Counted from the first letter of the stretch, positions 1 through 17,471 are shown. The stretch is DNA of 64,000 nt from Candidatus Eiseniibacteriota bacterium (GCA_965224245.1 OZ245046.1:448001-512000); one strand, 5' to 3'. Made by a program: numbers and translations. The notes: generated by a model not told the origin, from the sequence alone.

Positions 1-67
1 TCCACAGGCGTTCTCGCACATCGGGGTCGTCGAGGCCGCGTTGCGGCTGGGCTGAGCGGGCGGTCGG

Positions 68-1339
68 TCACTTCTGATGGCACTGGATGCACAGGTCCAT
101 CGCGGGATCCTTCGGCAGGTACTTCTCGAAGTCGGCGCCGTGGAGCTGGTGGCAGCTCAGGCAGGTGACCGGCGATCCGTTGCGCGGGTCGATCACGTCG
201 GGGCCCACGGGATGAGACGTTCGATGCGCACCTTCGTGGCATCGCGCACACAGGTCCACGTCGAGCGTGCGCAGATACCTCGGATTCGCGGCTCCGTGCG
301 GCGAGTGACACTCGCTGCACGCGACACCCGGATGCGTCATCATGTCGCTCGCCTTCCCGGAGGTGGTGGCGGTCGTCGCGGCATCACCGGCGCGAGGGGC
401 GTCGAAGTGACACTTCGTGCAGAGGGTGCTCTGGCTCGCGGCCAGGAGATCGCTCACGGCTGACGTGTGCGGGTTGTGACAGTTCTGGCACGATCGCTCG
501 AGGTCGAGATGACCGTGGAACGGCTCGTCGAGCGACGCCCGGATGCCCGTATGACACGTTGTGCAGAGCTCGGTGATGTCGGAGGTGACGGCGAAGGTGT
601 CGTCGTCACGAGCCGGGCCATGGCATCCCGCGCAGTTGCCTGCCGCGAAGGGCTCGTGCTGATTCGGCCGGAGAAGACCGGATTCCGACGAGGCGTGGGG
701 ATCGTGGCAGGCGGCGCAGTTCGCGCTCGCGAGGTTGCGCCCGTCGTGAGCCACCACGAAGCCGTCGTCGGCGTCGTGACAGTCGAGGCAGACCGCGGAC
801 ACCCGATCCCGAAGCAGGCTCGGCTCGCCGCTCCCGTGGGGTGCGTGGCATCCGGTGCAATCCCCGTCGTCGACCGGCGGGTGCACGACCGCCGATGCGA
901 GCCAGGCCCCGACCTGCGTGTGACAGTCGGCGCAGAGCGTGGGAGGGGCCTCGCGCAAGAGCGCCGCCCGGTCGGCCGCGTGGGGCTCGTGGCACGCCGT
1001 GCACTGACCGTGGGACGCCGGGGCGTGCACCGATTTCCGAGACAGCGACTCCGCCACGTCGTCGTGACAGCCCGTGCACAGCTCCGCCTGGTTCCTCGCG
1101 AGAAGCGCCGCGTGCCGCGAGGCGTGTGGGTTGTGACAGCCCGAGCACGTGCCGTCTCCGAACGGCGCGTGGACGTGAACTCCGTTCCGCGCCTGGTCGA
1201 TCGAGGAGTGACACTCGAGGCAGACCGTGGGCTCGTTCACGGGGGCCAGGCCCGACTGGGCCGCGGCGCTCGGCTCTGCGCCGGCGACCACGAGCACGCC
1301 GATCCCGACCAGTCGGATCCATCCGCGACGAAACCTCAT
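68..1339 (-). CDS. 16-heme c-type cytochrome (paired-CXXCH repeat family), Sec signal; probable GSU2494-like member of the omcS-companion cluster
   Basis: 16 CXXCH motifs counted. ATG at 1339 overlaps the upstream TGA (ATGA) and follows GGAGG. Hydrophobic signal ends AAA-Q. Confidence 0.92.
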   Translation of the reverse strand: MRFRRGWIRLVGIGVLVVAGAEPSAAAQSGLAPVNEPTVCLECHSSIDQARNGVHVHAPFGDGTCSGCHNPHASRHAALLARNQAELCTGCHDDVAESLSRKSVHAPASHGQCTACHEPHAADRAALLREAPPTLCADCHTQVGAWLASAVVHPPVDDGDCTGCHAPHGSGEPSLLRDRVSAVCLDCHDADDGFVVAHDGRNLASANCAACHDPHASSESGLLRPNQHEPFAAGNCAGCHGPARDDDTFAVTSDITELCTTCHTGIRASLDEPFHGHLDLERSCQNCHNPHTSAVSDLLAASQSTLCTKCHFDAPRAGDAATTATTSGKASDMMTHPGVACSECHSPHGAANPRYLRTLDVDLCARCHEGAHRTSHPVGPDVIDPRNGSPVTCLSCHQLHGADFEKYLPKDPAMDLCIQCHQK

Positions 1340-3354
1340 CGGGAGCCTCCCTCTGCCCCCGTCGGGCGATGGCACGACTCGCAGGATCCGCTCTCGAACG
1401 GCTCGTGCGTGAGGGTCTGGAACAGGCTCTCCGACGCGGACGCGTGCGGATCGTGGCACGCGCGGCAATCCAGTACCGATCCCGGCTGACCCATGTGAGC
1501 GGCCCGGAACCCGTCGTCGTCGCCGTCGTGACAGTCCAGGCATTGATCGGGAATGGCCTCGACCAGAAGCGAGGGCTCGGGGCTCCGGTGCGGCTGGTGG
1601 CAGGCGAGGCAGTCGCCGTCCTCCGCCGGGGCGTGTCGATGGGCCGCGTCCATGTGAGCCTCGAGATCCCCGTGACAGTTGAAGCACAGGCGCCGGGGCT
1701 CGTCCAGGAGGAGCGATGCGATGCGGCTCGTGTGCGGCTGATGGCAATCGGTGCAGGCGCCGTCGCCGAACGGGGCATGGGTCGTGCCGCCCGTGCCGGA
1801 GTCGGCGGCGTCGAGATCGTCGTGGCAGCCTCCGCACAGCTCGCGCTGGGTGCTGGCCAGAAGCCCGTCGTGTCGGGAGGCGTGAGGTTCGTGACACGAG
1901 TCACATTCGGAGTCTCCGAATGGAACGTGCACCTCGGTGACGGTCTCGTCCTCGACCAGCGACGCATGACACGTCATGCAGATCTCGTTGCGGTCCTCTC
2001 GCAGGAGCGAGGCGCGCTCGCCGGCATGGGGCGAGTGGCACGCCGTGCACCGGCCGATCTTGACCGGGACGTGCGTGACCTTGTCGGCGAGCCAGTCGTC
2101 GGCATCGTCGTGACACACCGCGCAGAGCTCGTAGCCGTTCGTGCGCGTCAGCTTCGGGTGGTCCGATCCGTGCGGCGTATGGCAGTCGAGACAGTCTCCG
2201 GCCTCGAACGGCGGATGCACCAGGGAGGCCTCGGTCTCGTGGCGCTGGTCGTCGTGACAGCCGAGGCACAACTCGCCCACGTCGCCGGCGATCAGCTTTC
2301 GTGACGCCTGGCCGTGCGCGTCGTGGCAGGCCAGGCAGTCCTCGCGGGCCGGGGGATGTCGGGAGGACCTGTCCAGCTCGGCGGGGAGATCGTCGTGACA
2401 GTCCACGCAGAGATCGCGCGCGGGTGCCCGTAGTAGCGCGAGCCGGCTCGAGCCGTGGGGTGAGTGGCAATCGAGGCACATCCCGTCGGCCACCGGATCG
2501 TGGGTGCCCGGGGGCGCAACGTCGGTCTCGTCGTGGCACTCGAGGCAGATGGCATTGGGTTCGCCCTCCGCCAGTGCGAACGGCTCGGCCCCGTCGGGAG
2601 CGCCATGGCACATCTCGCAGTCTCCGCTCGACACCGGATCGTGAATCGATCGCGTGAAGAGCTCGGGAGTCGGCGACGAGTGGGGCGCGTGGCAGATCGC
2701 GCAGTCCCGATCCGCAACGGGATAGCCGGCGTGAGCGTCCACGAACGACGAGGAGGACAGCTCGTGGCAGCTCGCGCAGAGTGCGTCCTGCTCGCTGACG
2801 AGAAGACCCGGGTGCTGGCCGCTGTGAACCTCGTGACACGAGAAGCAGCCGTTCTCCAGCGGGGCATGGCGATGCGCCGCCGAGAACGGCTCGCGCTCGT
2901 GACACCCGAAGCACAGCTGCTCGACGTCGGCGACGAGGAGCCCCTCCTGATCGCTCGCGTGTGGATCGTGGCAGGCGCCACAGTCGCCGTCGGCCACCGG
3001 TGCGTGGACGACCGGTGCGTCGAGGTCGACCGATTCCGCGTGGCAACGCGCGCACAGGGCGGCGCCGTCGTCGAGAAGACGGAGCGCCCCCACGAGCCCG
3101 TGCGGCTTGTGACAGGCCTTGCACTCGTTGTCCGCGACGGGTCGGTGGCGATGCCGGCCCTCGAACTCCTTCGGGTCGTGGCACTTCTGGCAGGAGCCGG
3201 AGGACGAGAAGCGGCGTCCCTTCTCGATCTGGGCCGACGCGCCGAGCGGCGTCGCGAGCAGCACGGCGAGCGCGAGCAGCCCGCCGGTCGTCGCACGTGC
3301 GAGCCACTCGACCGATCGCGTCCGGTGCGTCTGTCGCTTCTCGAGTTCGATCAT
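1336..3354 (-). CDS. 26-heme c-type cytochrome (paired-CXXCH repeat family), Sec signal; probable GSU2495-like
   Basis: 26 CXXCH motifs counted, arranged as repeated HxP..CxxCHxPH..LL..LCxxCH modules. Signal peptide ends ASA-Q. Confidence 0.93.
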   Translation of the reverse strand: MIELEKRQTHRTRSVEWLARATTGGLLALAVLLATPLGASAQIEKGRRFSSSGSCQKCHDPKEFEGRHRHRPVADNECKACHKPHGLVGALRLLDDGAALCARCHAESVDLDAPVVHAPVADGDCGACHDPHASDQEGLLVADVEQLCFGCHEREPFSAAHRHAPLENGCFSCHEVHSGQHPGLLVSEQDALCASCHELSSSSFVDAHAGYPVADRDCAICHAPHSSPTPELFTRSIHDPVSSGDCEMCHGAPDGAEPFALAEGEPNAICLECHDETDVAPPGTHDPVADGMCLDCHSPHGSSRLALLRAPARDLCVDCHDDLPAELDRSSRHPPAREDCLACHDAHGQASRKLIAGDVGELCLGCHDDQRHETEASLVHPPFEAGDCLDCHTPHGSDHPKLTRTNGYELCAVCHDDADDWLADKVTHVPVKIGRCTACHSPHAGERASLLREDRNEICMTCHASLVEDETVTEVHVPFGDSECDSCHEPHASRHDGLLASTQRELCGGCHDDLDAADSGTGGTTHAPFGDGACTDCHQPHTSRIASLLLDEPRRLCFNCHGDLEAHMDAAHRHAPAEDGDCLACHQPHRSPEPSLLVEAIPDQCLDCHDGDDDGFRAAHMGQPGSVLDCRACHDPHASASESLFQTLTHEPFESGSCESCHRPTGAEGGSR

Positions 3355-3370
3355 CTCGTTGCCCGGTCGA

Positions 3371-5068
3371 TCACGATTTGTCGCCGAGATAGGCCGTGAT
3401 CGCCGCCTCGTCGATCACGATCTCCGAGCGCTCACGCAGGAGGTCGAGGTGCCGGTCGAGCGCTTCGTTGAACTTCCGCCGGAACATGACCTGCCGGATC
3501 GGCATCTCGACGTCGTCCAGAGCCTTCACCCGCCCCGGTCGCTTGCCGAGCACCTTGAACACGAGCCATCCGTGATCCACGTCCAGCGCATCGCTGGTCC
3601 CACCGACGGGGAGTCGCGCGATCTCGTCCCGGATCGCGTCGGAGAAGAGGGACTCGGACACCCACCTGGGCTCGGACTGCAGCCCCTCGGTCTCCGAGCT
3701 CACGTACTGGCGCTCGACGTACGAGAAGTCGGCGCCGTCTCGCAGACGCGCCGCGATCTCGCGGGCCTCCTCCTCGAAGTCGGTCGTGATCGTAGCCAGT
3801 TGGACCTCGTCGCCCTCGCGAAAGTCGTCCTGGTGAGACTCGTAATACTCCTGGAACTCCTGCCGGTTGAACACGATCTTCGAGGCCACGGTCTCCTGGA
3901 GGTAGCTCTCGATCAGCGCCTGCTCGAGGTCGCGCTCGTAGAGCTCCACGATCTCGGGCACGTCCATGAAACCCGCCTCCTCGGCGGCCCGCGCGAGGAC
4001 GAGGTCCTCGGTCAGGTCGTCGATCGTGGCCCGGAGGTGTGTCGCGAACGGGATCCGGGAGTCGGCGAGCGCCTGGTGTGCCACCGCCGCCCGGAGCTCG
4101 GTCTCGGTCACGCCCTCACCGTTCTCGAAGCCCAGCGCGACGTCGTCCGATCCGCGTCGGAACTCCCCCAGGAGCACCCGGCCGGAGTCGGCGGCCACGC
4201 GCTCGAGCACGGGGGTCGAGCGCGTCACCGGAAAGCGGGTTCGATGCTCGTCCACGTACGCCGTCCAGCGGGCCTTGCCGCTCTCGGACTCCAGGTACTT
4301 CCGGATGCCCGGTGAGATGCTCTCGTACTCGTCCTCGTCGATGGGGTGCCGTTCGTCCACCCGCACGATGGAGTGGAGCGTGTTGTACGGGAACGGCTCG
4401 GAGATGTCGCCGGTGTCGAGGCCGGCGACCGCGTCCTTGACCACGGTCTCGACGTCGGCCCAGGGCTTCAGCTGGTGCCGGCCGCCGCGATAGCGGAAGC
4501 TGTCCCGCGAGCGCTCGACGGCCAGGCTGTCCCACGAGGCGCCGCGCACGAGCATGTCTCGGAGCTCGCGCGCCTCGGCCTCGGTGTCCACCGAGAGCTG
4601 GCTCAGCTGGATCTTCCAGAAGTACCGCTCGAAGCGCTCGCGGACCGCCGCCTCCGCGACCGGATCGGGAGGCGTCCACGTCGCGCGGACGTAGGCCCGG
4701 ACCGCGTTCCGCTGGCGTCGGTCCTGAACCGGCCCGACCACGCGCTCGTCGAGGTCGAGCTCGGTGGCCAGGGCCTGCTGCACGAGCAGCCGGTCGTTGA
4801 TGGCCTTGGTCAGCAGGCGGCTGAAGTCGAAGTCCCCCTGCCGAGTCATGTCCTCGGTGGCGTGCATCGCCATGATGGCCGAGTCGAGCATGGCGGTCGT
4901 GATCGAATCGCCGTTGACGATGGCGAGCGTGACGGGTTCGGAGGGTGTCACCCCGGGCGCGGCGGCCGGTGCGCCGGACGAGGGCGGGTCGTCGGCCCGA
5001 ACGTTCGAGGCCAGCACGACCAGGATGCCGGCCGCCGCCAGCGCCCCGCGGAGATCAAGGTGTGTCAT
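3371..5068 (-). CDS. Exported SurA/PrsA-like chaperone with two parvulin (PpiC) domains; OscH-like
   Basis: Signal peptide, LAIVNGDSIT N-domain, and two parvulin-like segments (EAEARELRDMLVRGASWDSLAVERS...GDISEP; EAREIAARLRDGADF...GGTSDAL). Confidence 0.85.
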   Translation of the reverse strand: MTHLDLRGALAAAGILVVLASNVRADDPPSSGAPAAAPGVTPSEPVTLAIVNGDSITTAMLDSAIMAMHATEDMTRQGDFDFSRLLTKAINDRLLVQQALATELDLDERVVGPVQDRRQRNAVRAYVRATWTPPDPVAEAAVRERFERYFWKIQLSQLSVDTEAEARELRDMLVRGASWDSLAVERSRDSFRYRGGRHQLKPWADVETVVKDAVAGLDTGDISEPFPYNTLHSIVRVDERHPIDEDEYESISPGIRKYLESESGKARWTAYVDEHRTRFPVTRSTPVLERVAADSGRVLLGEFRRGSDDVALGFENGEGVTETELRAAVAHQALADSRIPFATHLRATIDDLTEDLVLARAAEEAGFMDVPEIVELYERDLEQALIESYLQETVASKIVFNRQEFQEYYESHQDDFREGDEVQLATITTDFEEEAREIAARLRDGADFSYVERQYVSSETEGLQSEPRWVSESLFSDAIRDEIARLPVGGTSDALDVDHGWLVFKVLGKRPGRVKALDDVEMPIRQVMFRRKFNEALDRHLDLLRERSEIVIDEAAITAYLGDKS

Positions 5069-6143
5069 GTCGTGCCCTTTCCACGTGCATCACGATGCCG
5101 CGCACGATCTCGGCGGCCGAGGCCGCGGCCAGTCCACCCAGCGAGTGGCACCGCCCGAGCTGAAGGATTTTGTCGGAGTCACCCCCGTCACGTGAATCGT
5201 GGAAGGCCGAAACGACCTTGCCGGTCTCCGCATCGATCAGCCGGGCGCCGACCTCGAGCTCCGGCACCGACAGGGTCGGCTCACCGCGCGCCGGCTCGCA
5301 GCGCTCGACGGTGCCGGTCACGACGTACGCCAGGGCGAGATCGCCGTGGACGCTGGCCAAACCCGGGTAGTCGACGGCGCCACGGGCGGAATGGCGCCCG
5401 CTCAGGAGGATCTCGGACAGATAGCCGGGCTCGAGGACGGTGAGCCCGGCGCTCACGAGCGCCGAGGTGAGGGGCCCGGCGAACAGGCCGGCCCCGGCCG
5501 GATGCTCGGAGGCGTCGTCGAAGGCGATAACGCCCACGAGGGCGTTCGTCTTCGGGCCGTTCCGCAACTGGGTCCGCAGCGCGTCGCGGAGGCCGTCGAC
5601 CGCGCGTGACACGACGCGTTCGGCCACCGCCTCCACGTCGTCGATGCGTCCCGCGCCGAAGGCTCCGGCGAAGTCCTCGCCGGTGGCCGCCGTGCTGGCC
5701 GCCCAGGCCAGGAGACCCGTCTCCGGATCCAGCACCCGCAGCGAGATGGCCACGTCGGGGTTGGCACCGCCTTCGAAGACGTCGACCGACCCCAGGAGCA
5801 GCCGGGAGACGCCGGTCTCGTCCGCCAGCAGGCGGGCGCCGGTCGGTCCGATCCGGCCGAGGCTCCGGATCCGATGGCGCCTGAGGATCGGCCTGAGCGC
5901 CTCGTCCGACAGGAACGCGATGCCGGTGCGGGTCAGCTCGCGCCGGAGGTCGGCCATCACGACCGTGAGCGCGTCGCTCGTACCCGCATGGTTGGCGAAG
6001 GGGACGATGGCGATCTCCGCCGGCACGGAGACGTCCGGGGGCACGCCGCCGTCGGCAGCGGTCGCCCGTCCGAGCGCCGGGGCAAGGATGGCCAGGAGCG
6101 CGGCCAGCGCGCCCGTTCGCATGTAGGCTCGGAGGTGATCCAT
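5055..6143 (-). CDS. Exported protein with two tandem CsgG/LpoB-like domains (channel-like Osc component); start could be 6122
   Basis: Repeated pattern IAIVPFAN...LLGSVDVF...VAISLRVLDPETG and VGVIAFDD...VTGTVE...VGARLIDAETGKVV. Signal peptide present. Confidence 0.7.
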   Translation of the reverse strand: MDHLRAYMRTGALAALLAILAPALGRATAADGGVPPDVSVPAEIAIVPFANHAGTSDALTVVMADLRRELTRTGIAFLSDEALRPILRRHRIRSLGRIGPTGARLLADETGVSRLLLGSVDVFEGGANPDVAISLRVLDPETGLLAWAASTAATGEDFAGAFGAGRIDDVEAVAERVVSRAVDGLRDALRTQLRNGPKTNALVGVIAFDDASEHPAGAGLFAGPLTSALVSAGLTVLEPGYLSEILLSGRHSARGAVDYPGLASVHGDLALAYVVTGTVERCEPARGEPTLSVPELEVGARLIDAETGKVVSAFHDSRDGGDSDKILQLGRCHSLGGLAAASAAEIVRGIVMHVERARHDTP

Positions 6144-6150
6144 TTCACGC

Positions 6151-6741
6151 TCAGTTCACGAGTGTTCCGACGCACTTCTCGACGCAGCGGCGCGTGACCT
6201 CGCCGATCGACGGAGTTCCGGTGCCGAACAGTGATGACCAGAAGCCCCGCCCGCCTTCGGTGTGGGTCGTGGACCACACGGTCTGGCCGGTATCGGTCTC
6301 GATCATGCGCAGCGAGATCGTCACATAGTTGGACGAGGCGGATCCGGAGCGAACGGTCGCCGACTCGCCGATCGAGCCGACGAACAGGCCCTGGGCGCGC
6401 AGCTCCTTGCCGACCGCCTTGGCCTGCTCCTCGGTGATCTGCGCCCCGTCGAGGACGCCGTTGGCCGACAGGGCACGGGTCACCTCGCCGGGCTCGACCA
6501 CGTCGAACGCCTCGGTGGCCAGGAGCTCGGACACGAGATAGCGTGTCGCCCGGGCACCTGCCCCCTGATCACCCGTGAGGTTCTCGATCGAGACCACCGC
6601 CACCCGCTCCACGTAGTCGAAGTTGAAGCTCGGGTGCACGAACGTCGTCGCTCCCATGCCCGCACATCCAGCCAGGACTCCGGCCAGGACTCCGGCCAGG
6701 ATCGGCCGCGCGAGTCGAGTGTCCGAGGTCTTCCGTCTCAC
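6151..6741 (-). CDS. CsgG/LpoB-like lipoprotein
   Basis: Lipobox LAG-C; RVAVVSIENLT...LFVGSI...ISLRMIETDTGQTVWS. GTG start. Confidence 0.8.
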   Translation of the reverse strand: MRRKTSDTRLARPILAGVLAGVLAGCAGMGATTFVHPSFNFDYVERVAVVSIENLTGDQGAGARATRYLVSELLATEAFDVVEPGEVTRALSANGVLDGAQITEEQAKAVGKELRAQGLFVGSIGESATVRSGSASSNYVTISLRMIETDTGQTVWSTTHTEGGRGFWSSLFGTGTPSIGEVTRRCVEKCVGTLVN

Positions 6742-6756
6742 GGCGTTCTCCCGACG

Positions 6757-8859
6757 CTAGAAGACAATCCGGAACCCCTGCTGGAACGACACGGTCGACG
6801 TGCCGCCGACGGCGGTCTGGTCCAGGTCGACGATGCCGGCATAGAGGCTCCCGCGTGATCCCATTCCGTACGTCGTCTGGAGGCTGTAGCGCTCCGATCG
6901 CGTGCGGCCGTCCGATGTGTTGATCTGAGCCTGTGCGTTCATGCTCACCCGGGGGCTCAGGCTCCAGGCCACGAGGACGTCCCGGACGACGTCACGGCGC
7001 GTGTCGTCGGTGACGTTCAGTGACGCCCGGGAGAGTATCGTCCGCGTGAGGCGTAGGTCGAGCCCCACGCGCATCGTCGTCCGCGTGCGGACGAGGTCGT
7101 CGGACGCCCGGGTCGTCCGCTGGCGCAGCACGGAGGCATCGAGATTCAGGTCTCGCCGGAGCGCGGCGCTTCCGCCCACGCGAAACGTCCACGAATCGAG
7201 TCGCCGCGAGCCGGCGTAGTCGTGATCACGCGATCGCGCGACGTCAGCCACCATGTCCAGCCCCGTGACCGGTGTCCCCGACAGCTGGAGGCTCGCGGTG
7301 TTGTTCTCCTCCACCTTCGTGTGGTCGATGAGGCCGTGCCGGCTGCGCAGCGACATCTTCGCCCGCGCGGTCGGCAGCGGATCGACCTCGGCGGTGTAGG
7401 TCGCGGCGTGCGTCGACTGAGCCACGCGGTCGGTCCCCAGCCCGCGAAAGTCCTGCTCCCAGCGCAGCGTGTGCCGGACGATCTCGGACGGCTCGTAGAC
7501 TCCCCAGGTCGTGTAGGCGTAGTCGTCCCGGGACGCGCGTCCCACCGATGGCACGTGCCGGTACGCCGTGTCGAGCGAGAGCGTGACCGCATCGGACGCC
7601 GTGTACCGGAGACGCGCATCGGCCTGGTGGGCGTTCAGCACGTGCTCGACCGGGTCGCCGCTCCCCAGCTCCTCGAACGCCGTCACCTCGGTCACGTAGA
7701 CGGTCTCGACGACGTTGAAGCCGCCGCTGACGACCTTCACATACCGCGTCTCGACCGCGGGGAACACGATCTCGTAGCGGTTCTGGGTCGCGTTGAACAG
7801 GGTGCCGGGGAGCCCGTCCACCAGCCGCCACGAGAGGTTGTCGGCCGAGACGAAGACGCGCCAGCTGACGCCGTCACCCGATGCACGATCGGTGTAGACG
7901 TACACCGCGGCGACCCGCTGCGCGAGCCCGAGATCGACGCCGAGGTTCCGGTCGAGAGCGTCACCGCCGACGTCGATCGGGGGAGAGGTCGGCGCGTCGG
8001 TCATGCCGTCGACGAGCCCGGAGACCGTGTCGAGCGATCCGAGCTCCGGGGACGCGTCCAGGGCGTACACCCCGCGGCCGGCCGACAGCGGCACGAGGAT
8101 GACGTCGCCCGAGATCGTCTCGTCGCGGCGCCGCGTGTGCTGGTGCGTGTAGCTCCAGCTGACCCGCATGCGGTCTCTCGCGACCGGGGCCGGACGTGCG
8201 TCCCAGCGCAGGATGGACTCGAGCCGGCTGGTCCGGGCATCGGTCACCACGTTGTCCGAGCGCCGGTGCTCGAGCTGAGCGGTGATCGACTGTCGGCGGG
8301 ACACGTGATCGATGGCGCCGAGCAGCCGTCGTTCGCGCGTGTCTCGCTCGGAGGCCGCGCGATCGAAGGCCCGGCTGGCGTCGTAGCGGAGCGTCAGGAT
8401 GGGGCGCGTCTCGGCTCGGGTGCGCAGGAAGATCGACCAGTCGTCGTTGGTCACGTTCTGTGCCGCGTCGAGGGCGGTGGCCTGGCGTCGTCGCGCGTTG
8501 GCGTTCAACGTGAATCGGGGATGCGTCCAGATGATCTCGCCGCTCGGCTGGGCGTCCTCCCGCCAGAAGGTCGAGGACTCGACGTCGCGCAGGCCGAAGC
8601 GAAAGTAGGTGATGCCGAGTCGGACCTTCAGACGCGGATCGACCTGGCGGTGCCAGGCGAGCCGATGCTGCTGGCGAACGCTGGAGCGGGACTGGCCGTC
8701 GATGTCGGTCTGGACCGCCGAGACGTCGACGCTGCCGCTGAGGTTGCCCGCCGCGACGACGGGTCCCGCCGCGATCGCGAGAACGAATCCGCCGGCGAGG
8801 GCCACTGATCGCGCCGGCCGTGCCGCGCGCGACCGGGCTCGAGACCGTGGGGTACGCAT
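6757..8859 (-). CDS. Outer-membrane beta-barrel with an inserted discoidin/F5-8-like domain
   Basis: Signal peptide after ATG 8859, alternating amphipathic strands, C-terminal GFRIVF. Central insert LGVDLG...WRVFVSADNLSW...ETRYVKVV...VTEVTAF. Confidence 0.75.
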   Translation of the reverse strand: MRTPRSRARSRAARPARSVALAGGFVLAIAAGPVVAAGNLSGSVDVSAVQTDIDGQSRSSVRQQHRLAWHRQVDPRLKVRLGITYFRFGLRDVESSTFWREDAQPSGEIIWTHPRFTLNANARRRQATALDAAQNVTNDDWSIFLRTRAETRPILTLRYDASRAFDRAASERDTRERRLLGAIDHVSRRQSITAQLEHRRSDNVVTDARTSRLESILRWDARPAPVARDRMRVSWSYTHQHTRRRDETISGDVILVPLSAGRGVYALDASPELGSLDTVSGLVDGMTDAPTSPPIDVGGDALDRNLGVDLGLAQRVAAVYVYTDRASGDGVSWRVFVSADNLSWRLVDGLPGTLFNATQNRYEIVFPAVETRYVKVVSGGFNVVETVYVTEVTAFEELGSGDPVEHVLNAHQADARLRYTASDAVTLSLDTAYRHVPSVGRASRDDYAYTTWGVYEPSEIVRHTLRWEQDFRGLGTDRVAQSTHAATYTAEVDPLPTARAKMSLRSRHGLIDHTKVEENNTASLQLSGTPVTGLDMVADVARSRDHDYAGSRRLDSWTFRVGGSAALRRDLNLDASVLRQRTTRASDDLVRTRTTMRVGLDLRLTRTILSRASLNVTDDTRRDVVRDVLVAWSLSPRVSMNAQAQINTSDGRTRSERYSLQTTYGMGSRGSLYAGIVDLDQTAVGGTSTVSFQQGFRIVF

Positions 8860-8988
8860 GGCGTCACGGGACCGCGATCTCGATGGATGCGGCCGCGACC
8901 GGAACGGAGCGGCGTGTCCGGCTCCGCTCCGCGAACCGGTCCGATGGACCTCGGCTGACGATGCCAGACATGGGCTGCCCCCAGGTGT

Positions 8989-9015
8989 CGCCCGGGTCGA
9001 GAGCCGACCCGGGCG
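8989..9015 (-). other. Perfect 11-bp GC hairpin between the omcS homologue and the barrel gene (no U-tract)
   Basis: CGCCCGGGTCG-agagc-CGACCCGGGCG. Confidence 0.75.
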
Positions 9016-9061
9016 CAACGTGCGTGAAGAAGCCTCAACAAGTCGAGATTGACCCGTCGGA

Positions 9062-10138
9062 TCAGCCCGCGAGGCCGGCGATGCGCGGCGGCGGCGGGGT
9101 GAAGTCGATCAGGGCGTCGCCCTCATCCTTGTTGTGACACTTGTTGCACAGCGAGCGCTGATAGACCGAGTACGGGTTCGGGATCTTGTAGGAGCCCGAC
9201 TCGTGCCCGTCTTCTTCGAGACCGGTCACGTTGAAATCCCAGCGACCCGCGTTGGGCGCCGAGGTTGCATGTGCCCGGTGGCACGTGATGCACGAGACCT
9301 GACTGCCGGCGGACGGCCCTGCGGTCGATCCGACGGCGGCGGTGGCGTCTTCGAACGGGACCGCGGCGAGATACGCCGTGGCCTGAACGCCCCCGAGCTG
9401 GTCGTCGGTGCCGTTGTACAGGTTGTACGTGCTGGCGATGGTCCCACCAACCGGTTCACCCGCGGGGTGAATGAGCTCGGCGCTCTGGTGGTAGTCGCCG
9501 TGGCAGTTCGCGCACCAGCCGCTCATACCGCCCCTGTAGGCCGTATGATTGCTGTTCGACTCGCCGGCCCCGAAGAGGCTGAGCCCATCGGCGTCGGGAG
9601 CCGCCATCGTGAACGTGTACAGCCCGTCCTGGACGGACCCCGGACCGTAGAGCAGCCGGAAGTTCGCGTTGCCGTGAGGATCATGGCAGCTCGAGCATCC
9701 GAGCTCGCTCGACGGGAAGGTCCCGCCGGGCGCCATGCCCAGGACCGGATCGGCCCCGACGCCCTTGGACGGCGCGACCACGCTGTGTCCGGCCGCATGG
9801 CCGAGGATCGGCTCGCTGGCGCCGCCGTGACCGTCGTTGATGTTGTCTTCGAGGAGGAACGTGAAGTTGCCGGCGCCCCGCTCTGTCGCGGGAGCCAGCG
9901 GGTCGTCCACGAAGACCGCACCGAGGCCGTTTGCGTGACAGCCCAGACAGACGTCACTGGGAGTGGCGGCCTTGAGAAGCCAAGCGTGTGGCCCCGCAGG
10001 GTCTACCGGAGCTCCGTCTTCGCTGTTGTGCATCGTGTGGCAGCCGTTGCAGTGAGCCACACCTTCATCGTGGAAGGCGAGCACAGGCGACGCGCACACG
10101 ACGCTCACGCCGAGTGCGACGAGAACAGCCCTGCGCAT
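9062..10138 (-). CDS. omcS: OmcS-family hexaheme cytochrome c (nanowire subunit homologue), 358 aa precursor
   Basis: Six CXXCH. Mature N-terminus FHDEGVAHCNGCHTMHNS matches recalled OmcS FHSGGVAECEGCHTMHNS. Also APGGTFP..LGCSSCHDPHG, GMSGWCANCH, HPAG, AYLAAVPFE, CITCHRAHA, YQRSLCNKCH.KD. RBS GGAGG. Confidence 0.9.
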   Translation of the reverse strand: MRRAVLVALGVSVVCASPVLAFHDEGVAHCNGCHTMHNSEDGAPVDPAGPHAWLLKAATPSDVCLGCHANGLGAVFVDDPLAPATERGAGNFTFLLEDNINDGHGGASEPILGHAAGHSVVAPSKGVGADPVLGMAPGGTFPSSELGCSSCHDPHGNANFRLLYGPGSVQDGLYTFTMAAPDADGLSLFGAGESNSNHTAYRGGMSGWCANCHGDYHQSAELIHPAGEPVGGTIASTYNLYNGTDDQLGGVQATAYLAAVPFEDATAAVGSTAGPSAGSQVSCITCHRAHATSAPNAGRWDFNVTGLEEDGHESGSYKIPNPYSVYQRSLCNKCHNKDEGDALIDFTPPPPRIAGLAG

Positions 10139-10232
10139 CTTTCCACCTCCGCATTGAGATACTGAAGAACGAACGGGCGATCGCGTTCGCGACCGTCCTG
10201 GGATCACCGAGTCTCGATCATTCGCTACCCTC

Positions 10233-11324
10233 CTACCCGTGCGGCTCGGCTGGACCGAGCGGGGTGATGGTCGTCGTGTGGCTTTCCGGGCCACTGTTCT
10301 CCGGGTGAAGATCGGTCCTGACGAAATCGGGGAGACGGCAGATCTCGACCTTGCTTCGGAACACCTGGCCGACGTAGACGCGGCCCCGACCGTCGGCACC
10401 CAGGAGGCTCGGGTAGTAATACCAGCCGGGGCTGATCCCCCGTCCGCCGAACTCACCGCGAAACCGGCCACCGCGGTCGAAGCAGACGACGGTGAACCGG
10501 TTGCGGTCGAGGACGAGCACGAGATCGCCCCCGGTGACGGTCACATCGACCGGGAAGTTGAGCGAGCCGATCTCGGTACCCTTGGAGCCGACGCTGCGCC
10601 GGAACGTGCCGTCGCGCTCGTAGACGAACACGGTGCCGAGGGACGCCGCCGGCAGCCAGACGAGGTCGTCGTGCACCGAGAGCGAGCCGAGGACGGCCTT
10701 GCGGTCGACGACGTCGCCGGTCGCGTCCCGAACCGGGAAGTCGTCCACGAGACGACCGGATGGCTCGTGCTGCGAGATGCGCGGACCGCTCCGGTCGAGG
10801 ACGAAGAGATGCACACCGTCGTGCGCGATGCTCGCGGGCACGATCGGCTCGGCGCCGGGCTCGAGGACGACCTCGTCGATGAACGTCCCATCGAAGTCGA
10901 ACCGGAACACGCGCGGACCCGACTCCGTGGATCCGAGGACAAAAATGTAGCCCTCCACGTCGACGGCCACGTCGAGCGGAGCGGCGAAGCGGTCGCGACC
11001 GTCGAACTCGTACTTGTAGGTGCCGTCCACGTCGAAGATCGTGATCCGGTTGCGACCCGCATCGGCTACGAACACCTCGTCGTGGGTGCGGTCCACGAAG
11101 AGCGCCGACGGACGGACGAAGAGATTCTCGACGCCCGGCGGGTCCAGGCGGTCGATCAGCTCCGCGGGCCGGGACCGGGTATCTGCAAGGGTCGACCCCG
11201 CCGCCGAGCAGACGAGTCCGCCGGCGAGAAGGACGAGGACGGCACTCCGTTCCGGTCGCCGGTGGGAGGCGATCGGAAGCCGGGCCTCGGCGTTGTGAGT
11301 CGATCCGGTGTTAGGCACGGGCAA
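10233..11324 (-). CDS. NHL-repeat beta-propeller protein (OscD/GSU2505-like); start uncertain
   Basis: NHL repeats (FVRPSALFVD..EVFVADAGRNRITIFD; FAAPLDVAVD; LNFPVDVTV; YYPSLL) and an N-terminal hydrophobic segment. Confidence 0.85.
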   Translation of the reverse strand: MPVPNTGSTHNAEARLPIASHRRPERSAVLVLLAGGLVCSAAGSTLADTRSRPAELIDRLDPPGVENLFVRPSALFVDRTHDEVFVADAGRNRITIFDVDGTYKYEFDGRDRFAAPLDVAVDVEGYIFVLGSTESGPRVFRFDFDGTFIDEVVLEPGAEPIVPASIAHDGVHLFVLDRSGPRISQHEPSGRLVDDFPVRDATGDVVDRKAVLGSLSVHDDLVWLPAASLGTVFVYERDGTFRRSVGSKGTEIGSLNFPVDVTVTGGDLVLVLDRNRFTVVCFDRGGRFRGEFGGRGISPGWYYYPSLLGADGRGRVYVGQVFRSKVEICRLPDFVRTDLHPENSGPESHTTTITPLGPAEPHG

Positions 11325-11705
11325 AACCTCGCGAAGACAGCCAGACAGGTTAACGACTGCCGTTCGCTACCGACCATCGTGGTTTCCCCGTATGCGCGTT
11401 CGAAACGGCGCGCTCGGCCCACGGAAGTGAATGGTGTTCGAGGTCCGGTCCAGCGGGCGGAGGGCAGCTGGAGCCGGGGTTGCAGGACAGGCGAACGGTC
11501 CCGCCGGGTCGCCCGAACTTCCGACGGCGTGACGTATCGCGGAACGACACTAAAGTCGCTCGGCCGCGGCGTGCGGGTCGCCGGAGGGGCGAGGATCGAG
11601 GCCGGCGCGGTGGTCTGCCGCCGTCGCCCGGCGCCGGCGTTCCAGGCCGCCTGGATCGCCTGCCCGAGCCGCGGGCCCGATGTCGGACACGAGCGAAATC
11701 GGAGA

Positions 11706-11740
11706 CAAAAAGAGAGGACGCCGGGTCACGGCGTCCTCTC
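11706..11740 (-). terminator. Intrinsic terminator after the 11765-12691 gene
   Basis: 12-bp stem GAGAGGACGCCG/CGGCGTCCTCTC followed by TTTTT on the minus strand. Confidence 0.85.
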
Positions 11741-11764
11741 GTCGTTTCGGTCGGCTGGCCGGCG

Positions 11765-12691
11765 TCAGCGATACAGCGACTTGATCCGGCTCCAGCTTCG
11801 GTCGAGCGTCGGCGTCGACGAGTCGCAGTCGTACGGTCCGCTGAGACCGTTGTTGAACTCGTCGAAGATCTCGGTCAGCGCACTCGTCACGGCTGGCTCG
11901 AGGAACCCCGTGCCGATCGGGGGCACGACGAGGTCGCCGATCAGCGCGTCCGCTTCCGCGAGCGCGTCGAGGACCGAGGCCGCGTTCGCGCCGTTCTCGA
12001 TGTTCAGCCGCGTCGCGATGAGCTGGTGCGCGAGCGACACGAGACCGTTGCCCTCCACCGGCTGGTGCAAGATGTCGTTGAGCTCGGCCAGGTTGTAGAG
12101 GACGTTGCCGAGCATGATGACGTTGGTCGGCCAGTTCTCGAGGTGGTTCTTCCAGTAGCCCTGCGTGAACACGCACTCGTCGTCCGTGCCCACGGCGAGC
12201 GTCGCCTTGTACAAGGTGGGGCCCTTGGCGCTCGGATCCCACGCGCCGCCGCCGTTGGCGAAGATCGTGAAGACGTAGTCCGTGCCGTAGCCGAGCTCTC
12301 GCCAGTCGTTCGCGATCACGCCGGTCTCGTCGGCGATGTCACCCAGCTGAATGGTGATGGACTCACCGGGGGCCAGCAGGAACGTCTCCGGCTCGCCCGG
12401 AAACGCGTTCAGCGTCGGGCTTCCGTAGTAGTGCACGAGGTGCTGACTGATCGACTCCGGAGTCCACAGCTCGCCGTCGGAGAGGAAATCCGCTTCGGTG
12501 GCCCACAAGACGGTGAACCCATTCGGTGCACCGGTGGCTCCGGCGGTCACGAGAAACTCCGCGCGACCCTTGCCCGGCTCCACGAACCGCAACGTCGGGG
12601 TGTCCACCTCGATGGCGGAAGCCGTGCCGGCGAACAACGTGGCAGTCGAGGCAAGTCCGATGCAGAACGCGGCAGTGCGTCGGCGATGCAT
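11765..12691 (-). CDS. Secreted protein of unknown function with a CxxTQGYWKNH domain and C-terminal SWSRIKSLYR motif
   Basis: RBS GGAGG, signal ASA-I, motifs CVFTQGYWKNH and LAHQLIATRLN, terminal PTLDRSWSRIKSLYR. Confidence 0.85.
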   Translation of the reverse strand: MHRRRTAAFCIGLASTATLFAGTASAIEVDTPTLRFVEPGKGRAEFLVTAGATGAPNGFTVLWATEADFLSDGELWTPESISQHLVHYYGSPTLNAFPGEPETFLLAPGESITIQLGDIADETGVIANDWRELGYGTDYVFTIFANGGGAWDPSAKGPTLYKATLAVGTDDECVFTQGYWKNHLENWPTNVIMLGNVLYNLAELNDILHQPVEGNGLVSLAHQLIATRLNIENGANAASVLDALAEADALIGDLVVPPIGTGFLEPAVTSALTEIFDEFNNGLSGPYDCDSSTPTLDRSWSRIKSLYR

Positions 12692-12716
12692 TACTTTCCT
12701 CCGTTGCTATTTCAAC

Positions 12717-12752
12717 TGATCCAGGAACGCAATCATGATCCAGGAACGCAAT
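12717..12752. repeat. Tandem 17-bp direct repeat (period 19) upstream of the secreted-protein gene
   Basis: TGATCCAGGAACGCAAT at 12717-12733 and 12736-12752. TATACT on the minus strand at 12755-12760. Confidence 0.85.
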
Positions 12753-13070
12753 TCAGTATAGACCAGATGAGCCGCGCATGTGTGGATTTTCGTGCAAAGG
12801 CGCGACCGGCTCCGGGGCCCCGGCTGGAACGCATTCGTCAATCGAGATGCTTCCCGGCACGCCCGGGCTTGGTCGCGCTCCGGACACGAACTGCCGAGAC
12901 ATTGCGCCCGGCCTCGCGCGTGTAGGTGACGCTGTCGGACGCCGCGGAGACCAGGACGAGGCCGCGTCCGCCAGTTTGCGCGGTTTCTAGGGATTCAGTG
13001 GCTCGAGATACCCCGGCGATGGCGGCGGCCACGTCGAAGGGGGGCCAATCCGAGGCGGCGGTCCCTTGCG

Positions 13071-13200
13071 GCGAGGCACGAGCTCGTCTGGGACAGACGA
13101 GCGGCCATTGGCCGTGCCGTCCCTCGCGGCGTGTACGTCCTCGCGGTCACGTCCGGGACTGACGGGGTCGGCCGGATGCGAAGGTATCGCGCTCGACTGA
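13071..13200 (+). pseudogene. Isolated remnant of a FlgD-Ig/T9SS-like C-terminal domain
   Basis: Reads ARHELVWDRRAAIGRAVPRGVYVLAVT, resembling the WDGR...GR...GVY motif. No intact upstream gene. Confidence 0.5.
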
Positions 13201-13284
13201 CGTCACGTTGCCTGTTCGGTGCCGGGAGTTCGCTTCTCCGGGTGACGACGATCACCCGGAGACCCTCCCCCGAAAGGAGTTCCG

Positions 13285-13890
13285 ATGCTGACCCGAGCCC
13301 GTACCCTGACGGCCGCGATCCTGCTCGCGGCGGTCGCCTCCACCGCTTTCGCCCAGAACCGGGCCGGCGACGTGCACGTGTCCACGTTCGCCGGTCGCTT
13401 CGCTCCACGGAGAGCTCGACGGCTCACTGACGGCCGAGATCGATCCCGCCGTCGGCTACGGCGGCCAGCTCACCGTGTGGCTCACCCCGAACGTCGGGCT
13501 CGCCGGGTCGGCCTACTACGTCGAGACGACGTTGACCGCCGACCTCTTCGGCGAGACCGGCTCGATCGACACCTCGGTCTGGACCTCCGGCGGCCGGATC
13601 GTGCTCGGGCTCGGCAGTGCGGGGCCCCGGAGCCTCGTGAACCTGACCGCGGGGCTCGTGGCGAACTACACCGACTACGGGGACGTGATCGAGTCGTCGA
13701 CCCGCGCCGCCGGCGTCGTCGGGGCCGATCTGAACGTGCCGCTCGGTGCCAACCTCGGGCTGTGGCTCGGCGTGGACGACTACGTGCACGACGTCTGGTT
13801 CGAGCTCGACGGGGTCCGCACCGAGACGCAGCGGCAGCACGACGTGGTGTTCTTCGGGGGGGCACCTTCTACAGCGGACGGTGGCGCATC
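13285..13890 (+). pseudogene. Frameshifted small outer-membrane beta-barrel protein
   Basis: RBS AAAGGAG and signal AFA-Q in one frame. Barrel strands (GYGGQLTVWLTPNVGL...GVVGADLNVPL...QHDVVFFGG) continue in the +1 frame from ~13408. Second probable shift at the G7 run 13856-13862. Confidence 0.7.
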
Positions 13891-14223
13891 GACCGGAGCC
13901 GAGGGTGCGTTGCGGTCGTCGGAAGCGCGAAGCCGCACTGATGCGTGGACGTAGTCGGTGGATCGTGTTGAGCGCCGGGACGACGTTCATCTCACCGCTC
14001 CCGTTCCCACCGATCGACGAGGAGTTCGCCTACCGTCCGGAGATCGCCGGCGTCTCCGTGGGGTCTCCAGTCGATCCGCCCGGACCCTCTCCCGCACCAT
14101 GAGCAAGCGCGCCCGGGAACGGTAGTGGGTCAGACTCACTCCCCCGGGATTTGCCGTGCGGGCGCCGCCCGGCGATACACGCTGGAGACGGTGCCGACAA
14201 TGGGGCAGACTGGTTCCCACGCA

Positions 14224-14309
14224 GGAGGGATGGCCGAGCGGCTTAAGGCGGCGGTCTTGAAAACCGCTGTGCGAAAGCACCGTGGGTTCGAATCCCACTC
14301 CCTCCGCCA
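14224..14309 (+). tRNA. tRNA-Ser(TGA)
   Basis: Acceptor GGAGGGA/TCCCTCC, anticodon arm GCGGT-CT-TGA-AA-ACCGC, long variable arm, GTTCGAATC, CCA. Confidence 0.97.
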
Positions 14310-14391
14310 TTGCCTCCCGTCGGGTGTGGCCCCGTCGCAACCTTCTTGCCCTGCCCCCTCGATTGACGTAGGCTTCTCGCCCGGCAATCGG

Positions 14392-14481
14392 GGAGCGGTG
14401 ACCGAGCGGCTGAAGGTGGCACCCTGCTAAGGTGTTGTGCGGGAAACCGTACCGAGGGTTCGAATCCCTCCCGCTCCGCCA
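14392..14481 (+). tRNA. tRNA-Ser(GCT)
   Basis: Acceptor GGAGCGG/CCGCTCC, anticodon loop CT-GCT-AA, long variable arm, CCA. Confidence 0.97.
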
Positions 14482-14506
14482 TCACCCGGGCCGAGGGCAT
14501 TGGGAC

Positions 14507-14583
14507 GCGCCCATAGCTCAATTGGATAGAGCGTCTGGCTACGGACCAGAAGGTTGGGGGTTCAAGTCCTCCTGGGCGTACCA
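14507..14583 (+). tRNA. tRNA-Arg(ACG)
   Basis: GCGCCCA acceptor, TCTGG-CT-ACG-GA-CCAGA, GTTCAAGTC, CCA. Confidence 0.97.
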
Positions 14584-14631
14584 TCTCGAACATCATCGTC
14601 CGCGGCGCCGCGCGGTGCCGCCGGAGTCCGC

Positions 14632-14660
14632 GGCCCCGCCTCCAGGTCGGGGCCTTTTTT
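14632..14660 (+). terminator. Intrinsic terminator after tRNA-Arg
   Basis: GGCCCCG...CGGGGCC followed by T6. Confidence 0.8.
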
Positions 14661-14770
14661 GTGGTCACGTGCATGCCCGGCCGATCCAACGACGGCTGTC
14701 GATCGGTCGGACGTGGCCGAACCCGCGTGCGTCCCGGGACGCCGAGGACGCGCCGACCAATCGAGGCATC

Positions 14771-15439
<669 letters not shown>

Positions 15440-15450
15440 TCGCTCGGTGC

Positions 15451-15538
15451 GGAGAGGTGACCGAGCGGCTTAAGGTGCACGACTGGAAATCGTGTTGGCA
15501 GAAATGCCACGGGGGTTCGAATCCCCCTCTCTCCGCCA
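15451..15538 (+). tRNA. tRNA-Ser(GGA)
   Basis: GGAGAGG acceptor, CACGA-CT-GGA-AA-TCGTG, long variable arm, CCA. Confidence 0.96.
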
Positions 15539-17290: not shown

Positions 17291-17366
17291 GGGGATGTAG
17301 CTCAGTTGGGAGAGCGCCTCGTTCGCAACGAGGAGGTCGGCGGTTCGACCCCGCTCATCTCCACCA
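17291..17366 (+). tRNA. tRNA-Ala(CGC)
   Basis: GGGGATG/CATCTCC with G3:U70, CCTCG-TT-CGC-AA-CGAGG, CCA. Confidence 0.97.
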
Positions 17367-17375
17367 GTTCGCATT

Positions 17376-17471
17376 GGCCAGGTCCTGCGCAATCGCGGCC
17401 CACGAACCCCGTCAGGACCGGAAGGTAGCAGCGGTAAGTGGTTACCCGGTGTGCCGCAGGGTTGCCTGGCC
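17376..17471 (+). ncRNA. ffs: SRP RNA (small 4.5S type)
   Basis: Helix-8 motif TCAGGACCGGAAGGTAGCAGC, terminal GGCCAGG/CCTGGCC stem, usual position before dnaX. Confidence 0.93.

Follow-up and report, generated by a model that had tools for sequence, protein, structure and literature searches.

Does a bacterium outside Geobacter carry a complete locus for an OmcS-type cytochrome nanowire, as the first-pass annotation of this DNA had claimed, and if not, what does the locus encode? The stretch in question, hereafter the window, is 64,000 nucleotides of an Eisenbacteria-like genome (G000:C1:448001-512000), and eight minus-strand genes, all co-oriented, lie within its positions 68-11324. The system to be compared is the osc (omcS-companion) cluster of Geobacter sulfurreducens, GSU2505-GSU2493, which Shen et al. 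2025 (Cell Chem Biol 32:239) are said to have described. We find the locus to be real, intact and native, a compact osc-type cluster that lacks OscD, and we put at about 0.62 the probability of our preferred reading, that this compact, OscD-less variant of the osc system, native to an Eisenbacteria-like bacterium, builds and feeds a hexaheme filament.

The gene content and spacing had been described accurately. Translation of the minus strand gave the eight co-oriented genes in the order claimed, the CXXCH motifs of the three cytochrome genes add up to the 48 that had been counted (6 + 26 + 16), and the last six genes overlap or are at most 16 nt apart, the intergenic distances from the NHL gene to the 16-haem gene being 94, 202, 15, 7, -14, 16 and -4 nt, with an ATGA overlap at the junction of the 26-haem and 16-haem genes. 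The starts of the hexaheme, barrel and 16-haem genes are internal ATGs inside longer open frames. This order is far beyond chance: it is found again, with all eight genes, in Geobacteraceae, Nitrospirota, Acidobacteriota and Rokubacteria, and also in many metagenome contigs. In the direction of transcription, and with protein lengths in amino acids (aa), the features are as follows.

11325..11711, strand not assigned: intergenic region ahead of the cluster, which probably holds its promoter, delimited by the preceding gene's terminator (at 11712-11740)
10233..11324, minus strand: NHL-repeat beta-propeller with an N-terminal signal-like segment (Pfam NHL; Geomonas reciprocal best hit)
9062..10138, minus strand: compact OmcS-family hexaheme cytochrome, 358 aa, putative filament subunit (6 CXXCH; PDB 6EF8; AlphaFold2 model)
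8990..9014, minus strand: 10-bp GC-rich hairpin, terminator- or attenuator-like, between the subunit gene and the assembly genes (RNA folding)
6757..8859, minus strand: predicted outer-membrane beta-barrel, OscE-like, 700 aa (AlphaFold2 model; reciprocal best hit in Geomonas L060)
6151..6741, minus strand: LpoB/CsgG-fold lipoprotein, OscF-like, 196 aa, lipobox LAGC (Pfam LpoB/CsgG)
5055..6143, minus strand: secreted protein with two tandem LpoB/CsgG-fold domains, OscG-like, 362 aa (hhalign)
3371..5068, minus strand: putative periplasmic chaperone with two parvulin peptidyl-prolyl isomerase (PPIase) domains, OscH-like, 565 aa (Pfam Rotamase_2; position)
1336..3354, minus strand: 26-haem cytochrome with a signal peptide, OscI/GSU2495-like (26 CXXCH; Geomonas homology)
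68..1339, minus strand: 16-haem cytochrome with a signal peptide, OscJ/GSU2494-like (16 CXXCH; Geomonas homology)

A sigma-70 consensus scan of positions 1-14300 returned 0 sites, with 0.4 expected.

The candidate subunit is the hexaheme, and its relation to OmcS is the first matter to settle. The protein has a signal peptide, after which the mature N-terminus reads FHDEGVAHCNGCHTMHNS, and its CXXCH motifs stand at residues 30, 64, 148, 209, 283 and 331. Among all PDB sequences it matches only OmcS (6EF8/6NEF; phmmer, E 5.8e-40); the match to 6EF8 runs in three stretches over query residues 22-338, residue 22, which directly follows the predicted signal peptide, pairs with the first residue of mature OmcS, and the CHTMHNS motif is the same in both proteins. 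A template-free AlphaFold2 model built with 139 relatives (predicted local distance difference test, pLDDT, 88.8; predicted template modelling score, pTM, 0.85) has a single Foldseek match in the PDB at E <= 0.001, which is 6ef8_A (E 2.5e-19, template modelling (TM) score 0.76/0.67, 31% identity). An alignment of 19 diverse family members contains 12 invariant histidines, six from CXXCH and six others that include those of FH and TMH; among 139 hexaheme sequences conservation is at least 90% for the histidines of FH and TMH and complete for the other ligand histidines, and the distal histidines of the window protein (H23, H37, H118, H155, H224 and H290) all fall in invariant or at least 90% conserved columns. 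The TMH position is equivalent to His16 of OmcS, and this histidine, by the account attributed to Wang et al. 2019, reportedly ligates haem 5 of the next subunit. Cross-subunit haem ligation in OmcS is treated in general terms in the accessible text of PMC12307469. By sequence and predicted fold, the window hexaheme is thus a true member of the OmcS family, with the fold of OmcS and none of the haem ligands lost.

Membership in the family is not the same as orthology with OmcS. The family is large, with 4284 of 8000 scored candidates at E <= 0.001 in a 90%-clustered database, and 821 clusters at the same threshold when grouped at 50% identity. A quick maximum-likelihood tree built from 87 full-length members places the window protein in a clade of 15 compact forms of ~350-385 aa (support 92 in the Shimodaira-Hasegawa-like approximate likelihood ratio test, SH-aLRT), and the OmcS-like representatives P0159 and P0235 (E 2e-111 and 3e-104 to 6EF8) belong to another clade, of ~390-470-aa forms; a second tree separates compact from long forms at 99% support. 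Two segments of the long forms, of ~50 and ~30 residues, are absent from the compact ones. Because its clade is separate from the OmcS-like proteins, we take the window hexaheme as an OmcS-family member that is not an ortholog of OmcS proper (GSU2504); its position is that of omcS in following an NHL gene (GSU2505 in the case of omcS), and equally that of GSU2501 in preceding the assembly block. Hence the protein resembles OmcS (GSU2504; PDB 6EF8, 6NEF) in its six CXXCH, its six distal histidines including the equivalent of the ligand for the neighbour's haem, its mature N-terminus beginning FH, and its fold (TM 0.76), and differs from it in an identity of only ~31%, in belonging to the compact clade with two internal deletions, and in a short C-terminal tail past the last haem motif; polymerisation, established for OmcS, would hold here by analogy.

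Whether the neighbours are the osc genes was examined on Geomonas. A scan of species-representative genomes with an alignment of the hexaheme family confirmed 524 of 640 stretches and gave 77 loci from the best 80, with hosts that include Geobacteraceae, Desulfuromonadaceae, Anaeromyxobacter, Nitrospirota, Acidobacteriota, Rokubacteria, Schekmanbacteria and Desulfobulbaceae. The Geomonas azotofigens locus (L060) encodes, in order, an NHL protein of 346 aa, a hexaheme of 452 aa, a lipoprotein of 466 aa, a barrel of 744 aa, a lipoprotein of 189 aa, a double-domain protein of 365 aa, a PPIase of 634 aa, a 26-CXXCH protein and a 16-haem-type protein cut by the end of the locus; the 16-CXXCH protein is complete in Geomonas oryzae (L067). 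The window proteins are 20%-38% identical to their Geomonas counterparts, with E values from 3e-9 (PPIase) to 1.5e-139 (26-haem protein), the syntenic window gene was the genome-wide best hit for 7 of 9 Geomonas queries (tblastn), and the haem counts of 6/26/16 are the same in both clusters. The homology and shared gene order with the Geobacteraceae osc-type cluster proposed in the first-pass annotation are therefore borne out against these two loci, with 7 genes matched.

The exception lies between the hexaheme and the barrel. According to the accessible text of PMC13194489, oscC is GSU2501, oscI is GSU2495 and oscJ is GSU2494, and the work of Shen et al. 2025 is cited there for OscH in folding, OscE, OscF and OscG in secretion, and OscD in morphology. 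Consecutive lettering fits the Geomonas order, with OscD as the 466-aa lipoprotein, OscE as the barrel, OscF and OscG as the lipoprotein-fold proteins, OscH as the PPIase, and OscI and OscJ as the 26- and 16-haem proteins. The OscD-like lipoprotein of Geomonas is a seven-bladed propeller of the Lactonase/YncE type, a family other than NHL, and such a gene sits between hexaheme and barrel in 25/25 long-form loci; the window has only a 202-nt gap at this position, and no OscD ortholog was found in the host genome, where the best matches are weak repeats in 929- and 941-aa frames (E 1e-6). Because the families differ, the position is empty and the genome lacks an ortholog, the identification of the NHL propeller as OscD was wrong, and the cluster is one without OscD. 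The NHL gene is instead the counterpart of the GSU2505-type gene that precedes hexahemes, and it stands directly before the hexaheme in 22 short-form and 20 long-form cases. The accessible part of PMC9070056 describes GSU2505 as a protein with NHL repeats, encoded next to omcS, on which the assembly or expression of OmcS may depend. The word 'complete' was accordingly too strong for this locus. Because OscD is reported, in the text available to us, for morphology and not for secretion, we treat it as an accessory and not as a defining part.

The window cluster thus has the gene classes and order of the G. sulfurreducens osc cluster from NHL to 16-haem gene, as tested on the Geomonas versions, and differs in several respects: it lacks the OscD-type propeller lipoprotein, it has one hexaheme gene where G. 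sulfurreducens has omcS, omcT and oscC, its hexaheme is ~70-100 residues shorter, its 16-haem gene is the last, with a convergent trehalose gene following there instead, and its host is Eisenbacteria-like.

Domain by domain, the companions agree with this assignment. The NHL gene product matches Pfam NHL (E 1.9e-7) and the DUF5128 6-bladed propeller (E 2.4e-7) and is 27% identical to the product of the NHL gene upstream of the L060 hexaheme, its reciprocal best hit. For the 196-aa lipoprotein, Pfam LpoB (E 4.6e-7) and CsgG (E 5.9e-5) are both over their cut-offs, the lipobox cysteine is invariant in 41 homologues, and the L060 protein is again the reciprocal best hit (34%, E 1e-29). The 362-aa protein (5055-6143) has no Pfam match of its own; in hhalign comparisons its N-terminal half reaches 99.4% and its C-terminal half 99.7% with the lipoprotein family, and the two halves 99.8% with each other, so that the protein is a tandem duplication of the lipoprotein's domain. 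Among its 39 homologues, Pfam matches were to CsgG (8), LpoB (8) and GNA1162-like (10), and it is 26% identical to the L060 protein (E 2e-17, reciprocal best hit). The PPIase matches Rotamase_2 in two stretches (E 6.1e-23; second domain at ~147-262) and Rotamase_3 at 163-240, its NCBIfam matches of PrsA/SurA/PpiD type being under their cut-offs; it is 20% identical to the Geomonas protein (E 3e-9 in a small database) and shares its position and architecture. The 26-haem cytochrome contains Paired_CXXCH_1 14 times (E 4.6e-147) and is 38% identical to the 26-CXXCH protein of L060 (E 1.5e-139, reciprocal best hit), and GSU2495 is likewise a 26-haem protein in the accessible text of bioRxiv 2025.11.06.686851. 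The 16-haem cytochrome, whose gene has a ribosome-binding site at its start, is 35% identical to the 16-CXXCH protein of G. oryzae L067 (E 9e-80, reciprocal best hit).

The AlphaFold2 model of the barrel (44 sequences, pLDDT 89.7) has 11 long strands, a beta-sandwich at ~254-398, and then 17 long strands. Should all 28 strands belong to a single barrel with a periplasmic N-terminus, the insert would, on the DSSP reading, lie in an extracellular loop. The sole invariant residues in the 44 homologues, W344 and K375, lie within this insert, as do most of the near-invariant ones, and it is the part still alignable with the Geobacteraceae proteins; the whole barrel is the reciprocal best hit of the L060 barrel (E 2e-10). 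On Pfam, F5_F8_type_C_2 scored 25.3 bits, under its cut-off. Foldseek returned for the model only generic large barrels, namely TonB-dependent receptors, PapC/FimD ushers and MtrB, at TM 0.24-0.44, the highest TM-score being that of MtrB (6r2q_B, 0.41/0.44). This last match brings in a different explanation, in which the locus encodes a porin-cytochrome conduit: the 26- or 16-haem protein would sit in the barrel as MtrA does in MtrB, the hexaheme would be a surface terminal reductase working as a monomer or small oligomer, and the lipoproteins and PPIase would serve hexaheme assembly only. The likeness to such conduits (MtrCAB; Pcc of Geobacter) is that of a large outer-membrane barrel with periplasmic and surface multihaem cytochromes, and MtrB gives the best TM-score; in contrast, no sequence relation was detected, the window barrel has ~28 strands by model and a jelly-roll insert, and lipoproteins and a PPIase are added. 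Moreover, the TM-scores are low and generic, with TonB-dependent receptors and ushers similar by E-value, and the homologous Geobacter genes are reported to act in folding and secretion of the OmcS nanowire (PMC13194489, accessible text).

Chaperone-usher pili (Pap, Fim) offer a working analogy only. In both, a subunit gene is followed by a hairpin and then by a periplasmic chaperone and an outer-membrane barrel, and usher barrels are among the Foldseek matches of the window barrel; unlike those pili, the window proteins have no homology to ushers or PapD-type chaperones, and the haem subunits would be joined by metal ligation and not by strand exchange. A porin or usher analogy is also discussed for OmcS and OmcE in the available portion of PMC13712944.

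The hairpin itself is a conserved feature. In the window it occupies 8990-9014, with a GC-rich stem of 10 bp, 48 nt past the hexaheme stop codon, and the 202-nt spacer (221-nt RNA folded) has z -3.64, with 0/200 shuffles as good. Lacking a U-tract, it is not among the terminators that the consensus scan returned. A survey of hexaheme spacers only covered the 120 nt past the stop codon in 20 loci picked for long flanks, namely the window together with 15 of the short and 4 of the long form. A strong hairpin of 10-19 bp was present in 20/20 of the loci folded, several being followed by U-runs, and z was <= -2.2 in 18/20, the exceptions being L155 (+0.28) and L070 (-1.66). By analogy with pilus subunit genes, we infer that the hairpin is a terminator or attenuator through which more subunit than machinery would be made. 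Its presence between subunit and machinery genes in 20/20 loci fits such an excess and counts against the conduit. A hairpin of conserved position between subunit and machinery genes is a new observation here. Separately, many stems in L080, L086, L092, L094, L097, L128, L147, L153 and the window, which are of different lineages, share the core GCCCGGG/CCCGGGC; this core may reflect a binding site under conservation, or else chance, since the palindromes are rich in GC.

Conservation of the subunit in nature bears on the same choice. A metagenome scan with the window hexaheme confirmed 192 relatives, of which 80 loci were kept, and the longer of these share the eight-gene order. In every one of the 11 distinct short-form loci that are complete, conservation is highest for the hexaheme among the eight proteins (52-70% vs 22-58%), which is expected if most of its surface is constrained and which argues against a monomeric terminal reductase. 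In comparisons of the Geomonas L060 cluster with four long-form loci, the small lipoprotein is the best conserved (57-60% vs 47-56% for the hexaheme). Surface cytochromes of Geobacter are reported to evolve fast, and the compact clade stands in contrast, the subunit being there the most conserved protein of the cluster.

The same collection shows how variable OscD is. In the short-form loci whose next gene after the hexaheme was readable, that gene is the barrel in 16/25 and an OscD-like gene in 9/25, some near-duplicate contigs remaining among them. Presence and absence of OscD are interspersed on the hexaheme tree, where well-supported branches require at least 4 changes, so that OscD has been repeatedly lost or gained. 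The compact clusters of uncultured Eisenbacteria, Gemmatimonadota, Zixibacteria, Acidobacteriota and Delongbacteria (L079-L158) resemble that of the window in hexahemes 50-77% identical, in the same eight-gene order and in the absence of OscD in 16/25; they differ where the OscD-like gene is kept (9/25) and where an extra 6- or 7-haem paralogue follows the 16-haem gene (L080, L086, L094).

Among the 120 hexaheme matches listed, 11 are named (4 Eisenbacteria, 2 Zixibacteria, 2 Acidobacteriota, and 1 each of Gemmatimonadota, Delongbacteria and 'bacterium'), and all 11 are 65-72% identical to the window protein. A tree of these and the window protein, 12 short-form hexahemes in all, with 4 representatives leaves 9/13 inner branches open and neither shows nor excludes transfer between phyla. 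One Acidobacteriota-labelled hexaheme groups in it with two Zixibacteria-labelled ones (P0042, P0067, P0095; SH-aLRT 98), reflecting transfer or a mislabelled bin.

Several points weigh against a filament assembled by an osc-type system. The hexaheme is placed, by sequence, in a clade apart from the OmcS-like proteins (SH-aLRT 92, 99), and the loss of its two internal segments might matter for subunit contacts. The ligand histidines are kept throughout the family; they therefore show membership and cannot separate wire-formers from non-formers. In the accessible text of bioRxiv 2025.11.06.686851, wire formation among the G. sulfurreducens paralogues is known for OmcS only, and homology is held to predict wire formation poorly. 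Filament formation by the window hexaheme, and likewise the roles of the barrel and the lipoproteins, would carry over by analogy from the Geobacter system, and the osc comparison uses Geomonas L060 and L067 as stand-ins for G. sulfurreducens, which is represented neither among the 77 loci of the genome scan nor among the 14 control genomes. An OscD counterpart is missing from the window, the PPIase had no match in the genome-wide tblastn from Geomonas, so that its sequence orthology is weak, and the barrel's about 28 predicted strands with a conserved jelly-roll insert take both strand count and insert topology from DSSP only. A homodimer prediction for the mature hexaheme (two copies, residues 22-358) gave a score of 0.00 against a mark of 0.42, was run without controls, and informs neither way. 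No RNA run is listed as containing window positions 5000-11400. The conduit draws on some of the same facts, namely that polymerisation is known among the paralogues for OmcS only, GSU2501 being without assigned function in the available text of bioRxiv 2025.11.06.686851, and that the compact hexaheme lacks two segments of OmcS; however, the histidine that in OmcS ligates the next subunit's haem is kept. Taken with the evidence above, we regard the conduit as unlikely.

The native standing of the cluster was examined on the host and the assembly. The genome is 6.94 Mb, with a main contig of 6.45 Mb, and is 97% complete with 1% contamination. Among the 120 RecA matches listed, 8 are named, comprising 6 Candidatus Eisenbacteria, 1 Usitatibacter, 1 Hyphomicrobiales and 0 Desulfuromonadia, and the nearest named hexaheme relatives are Eisenbacteria-labelled at 72% identity. 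The earlier placement of the host outside Geobacter and the Desulfuromonadia thus holds on both proteins, whose named matches are mostly Candidatus Eisenbacteria, and a host within Desulfuromonadia is rejected. A chimeric join near 11.5-14 kb had been named as the result that would undo the claim; there is none, as a Logan contig of run X1 spans window positions 1-14307 with zero differences, and one of run X2 spans 4639-14307. An assembly chimera is rejected on this ground, with the qualification that both runs are probably from the source sample, so that the match checks the assembler and not the sample.

A foreign origin, whether by recent transfer from Desulfuromonadia or by a chimeric join, could be suspected from the six tRNA genes 3 kb upstream and from the patchy distribution of the hexaheme, which at E <= 1e-20 has matches in only 9/205 other species genomes of the host phylum, all in three families of the same class, with no match at this threshold in the only other genome of the host's family. 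Against this, GC is even over cluster and flanks (0.67-0.72), the Logan contigs run through the cluster, and the locus lies inside the 6.45-Mb contig between trehalose genes and tadA/SRP RNA/dnaX (SRP, signal recognition particle). The nearest named hexahemes are, as said, Eisenbacteria-labelled, with Geobacteraceae proteins at 20-38% identity, and G018, one of those nine genomes and of the same class as the host, carries the same OscD-less cluster. We give this explanation almost no credence, and the cluster is best regarded as native. Three others of the nine have, in the stretch examined, just NHL-hexaheme pairs or a 7-haem paralogue standing alone. In G018 the 26-haem protein has a homologue (L160:2881-5004) with 25 CXXCH, one motif being perhaps variant or lost.

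Of the ccm/ccs genes that had been proposed as a check, those for CcmE, CcmF and CcmC of system I lie at C1:531-537 kb, ~73-80 kb from the cluster, and ResB was not found in the genome. About 35 frames with at least 4 CXXCH are present. No stand-alone c7-type trihaem (PpcA-type) protein was found in the genome, all 15 Cytochrome_C7 matches being in open frames of 235-991 aa. Clusters of multihaem frames with up to 19 CXXCH stand at G000:C1:739-748 kb, 1128-1132 kb, 1422-1432 kb and 1793-1806 kb, and could supply inner-membrane and periplasmic parts of an electron-transfer chain. The accessory genes of the cluster are single-copy in the genome. A second full cluster was looked for and rejected; what exists is a lone 7-CXXCH paralogue of the hexaheme, 52% identical, at G000:C1:3740077-3741102 (L159:9996-11252, minus strand), with no assembly genes within 10 kb. 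Unlike this lone copy, a 6- or 7-haem paralogue directly follows the 16-haem gene in several metagenome loci and in G018.

Under the preferred reading, a compact osc system building a hexaheme filament, all eight proteins would be exported by Sec, and the three cytochromes would receive haem from Ccm system I. The two-parvulin chaperone would keep the loop-rich hexaheme assembly-competent, the ~28-strand barrel with its jelly-roll insert would be the outer-membrane exit and anchor, and the three LpoB/CsgG-fold domains of the two lipoprotein-type proteins would sit below it. Hexaheme subunits would polymerise head to tail, the TMHNS histidine ligating haem 5 of the neighbour as in OmcS, and the 26- and 16-haem proteins would be long periplasmic wires that feed the filament base, with no PpcA-type trihaem protein encoded. 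The hairpin after the subunit gene would let the subunit exceed the machinery in amount.

The direction of flow is a separate matter, since nothing in the locus fixes it. The same hardware might draw electrons in from minerals, from Fe(II) or from partner cells, or serve as a charge buffer, and the many other multihaem loci of the genome would be compatible with this; Eisenbacteria and Zixibacteria with iron-cycling genes are listed in PMC8478452, in its accessible text, Zixibacteria with both oxidation- and reduction-type genes. The sole characterised homologous system, however, exports electrons, and no Cyc2-type or other oxidation marker was seen beside the cluster, though none was searched for. 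Reversed flow or storage seems to us quite improbable.

The cluster is flanked by ordinary chromosome. Downstream are convergent trehalose genes: an 840-aa fusion of trehalose-phosphatase, trehalase-like N-terminal and GH15 parts (L001:9533-12055; G000:C1:445533-448055, plus strand) is convergent with the 16-haem gene and is preceded by a GT20 trehalose-phosphate synthase gene. Upstream are the gene of a secreted protein of 308 aa, which has a terminator to itself, and six tRNA genes, tadA, SRP RNA and dnaX. The gene for the 308-aa protein (11765-12691, minus strand) ends with a 12-bp hairpin and T-run at 11712-11740 (minus strand); the protein has no Pfam match, a third-position GC of 0.89 and the C-terminal sequence SWSRIKSLYR, and may bear a lineage-specific C-terminal sorting motif. 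The six tRNA genes are interleaved with a tadA-type deaminase gene (open frame 14432-15439) in a group followed by a seventh tRNA, SRP RNA (17376-17474) and dnaX, the intervals concerned being 14224-15535, 17291-17474 and 17531-19294. Logan contigs break at the tRNA region, where depth rises 10-50 fold, presumably from tRNAs of other organisms. The 26 small contigs of the assembly (C2-C27, 2.8-74 kb) have GC mostly of 0.57-0.66 (C20, 0.69), compared with 0.69 in the 6.45-Mb contig, and may be plasmids, islands or binning carry-over.

To go by its title and by the papers citing it, Shen et al. 2025 already made public both the osc system and its spread beyond Geobacter, and the supplements of that work may already list the compact clade; the present findings refine that picture and do not overturn it. 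What they add is a reduced gene set of the Geobacter OmcS-wire kind in the nearly closed genome of a phylum about which little is known. It supplies a minimal parts list for reconstitution, consisting of the subunit, the NHL protein, the barrel, a pair of lipoprotein-fold proteins, the chaperone and the two large cytochromes. OscD appears dispensable and lost several times, an observation worth testing. The compact subunit is found at 52-77% identity over at least five phyla, mostly in uncultured bacteria. As a tentative extension, which we hold with more doubt than confidence, the compact and often OscD-less cluster could be the main environmental form of the nanowire and not a side branch of the Geobacter one, its subunit made in excess by means of the hairpin and its filament fed directly by the 26- and 16-haem wires and not by PpcA-type shuttles. 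If true, OscD, with its repeated losses, would serve for tuning, by choosing between single and bundled filaments, and long-range extracellular electron transfer would be routine in lineages of soil and sediment, among them Eisenbacteria, Zixibacteria and Gemmatimonadota.

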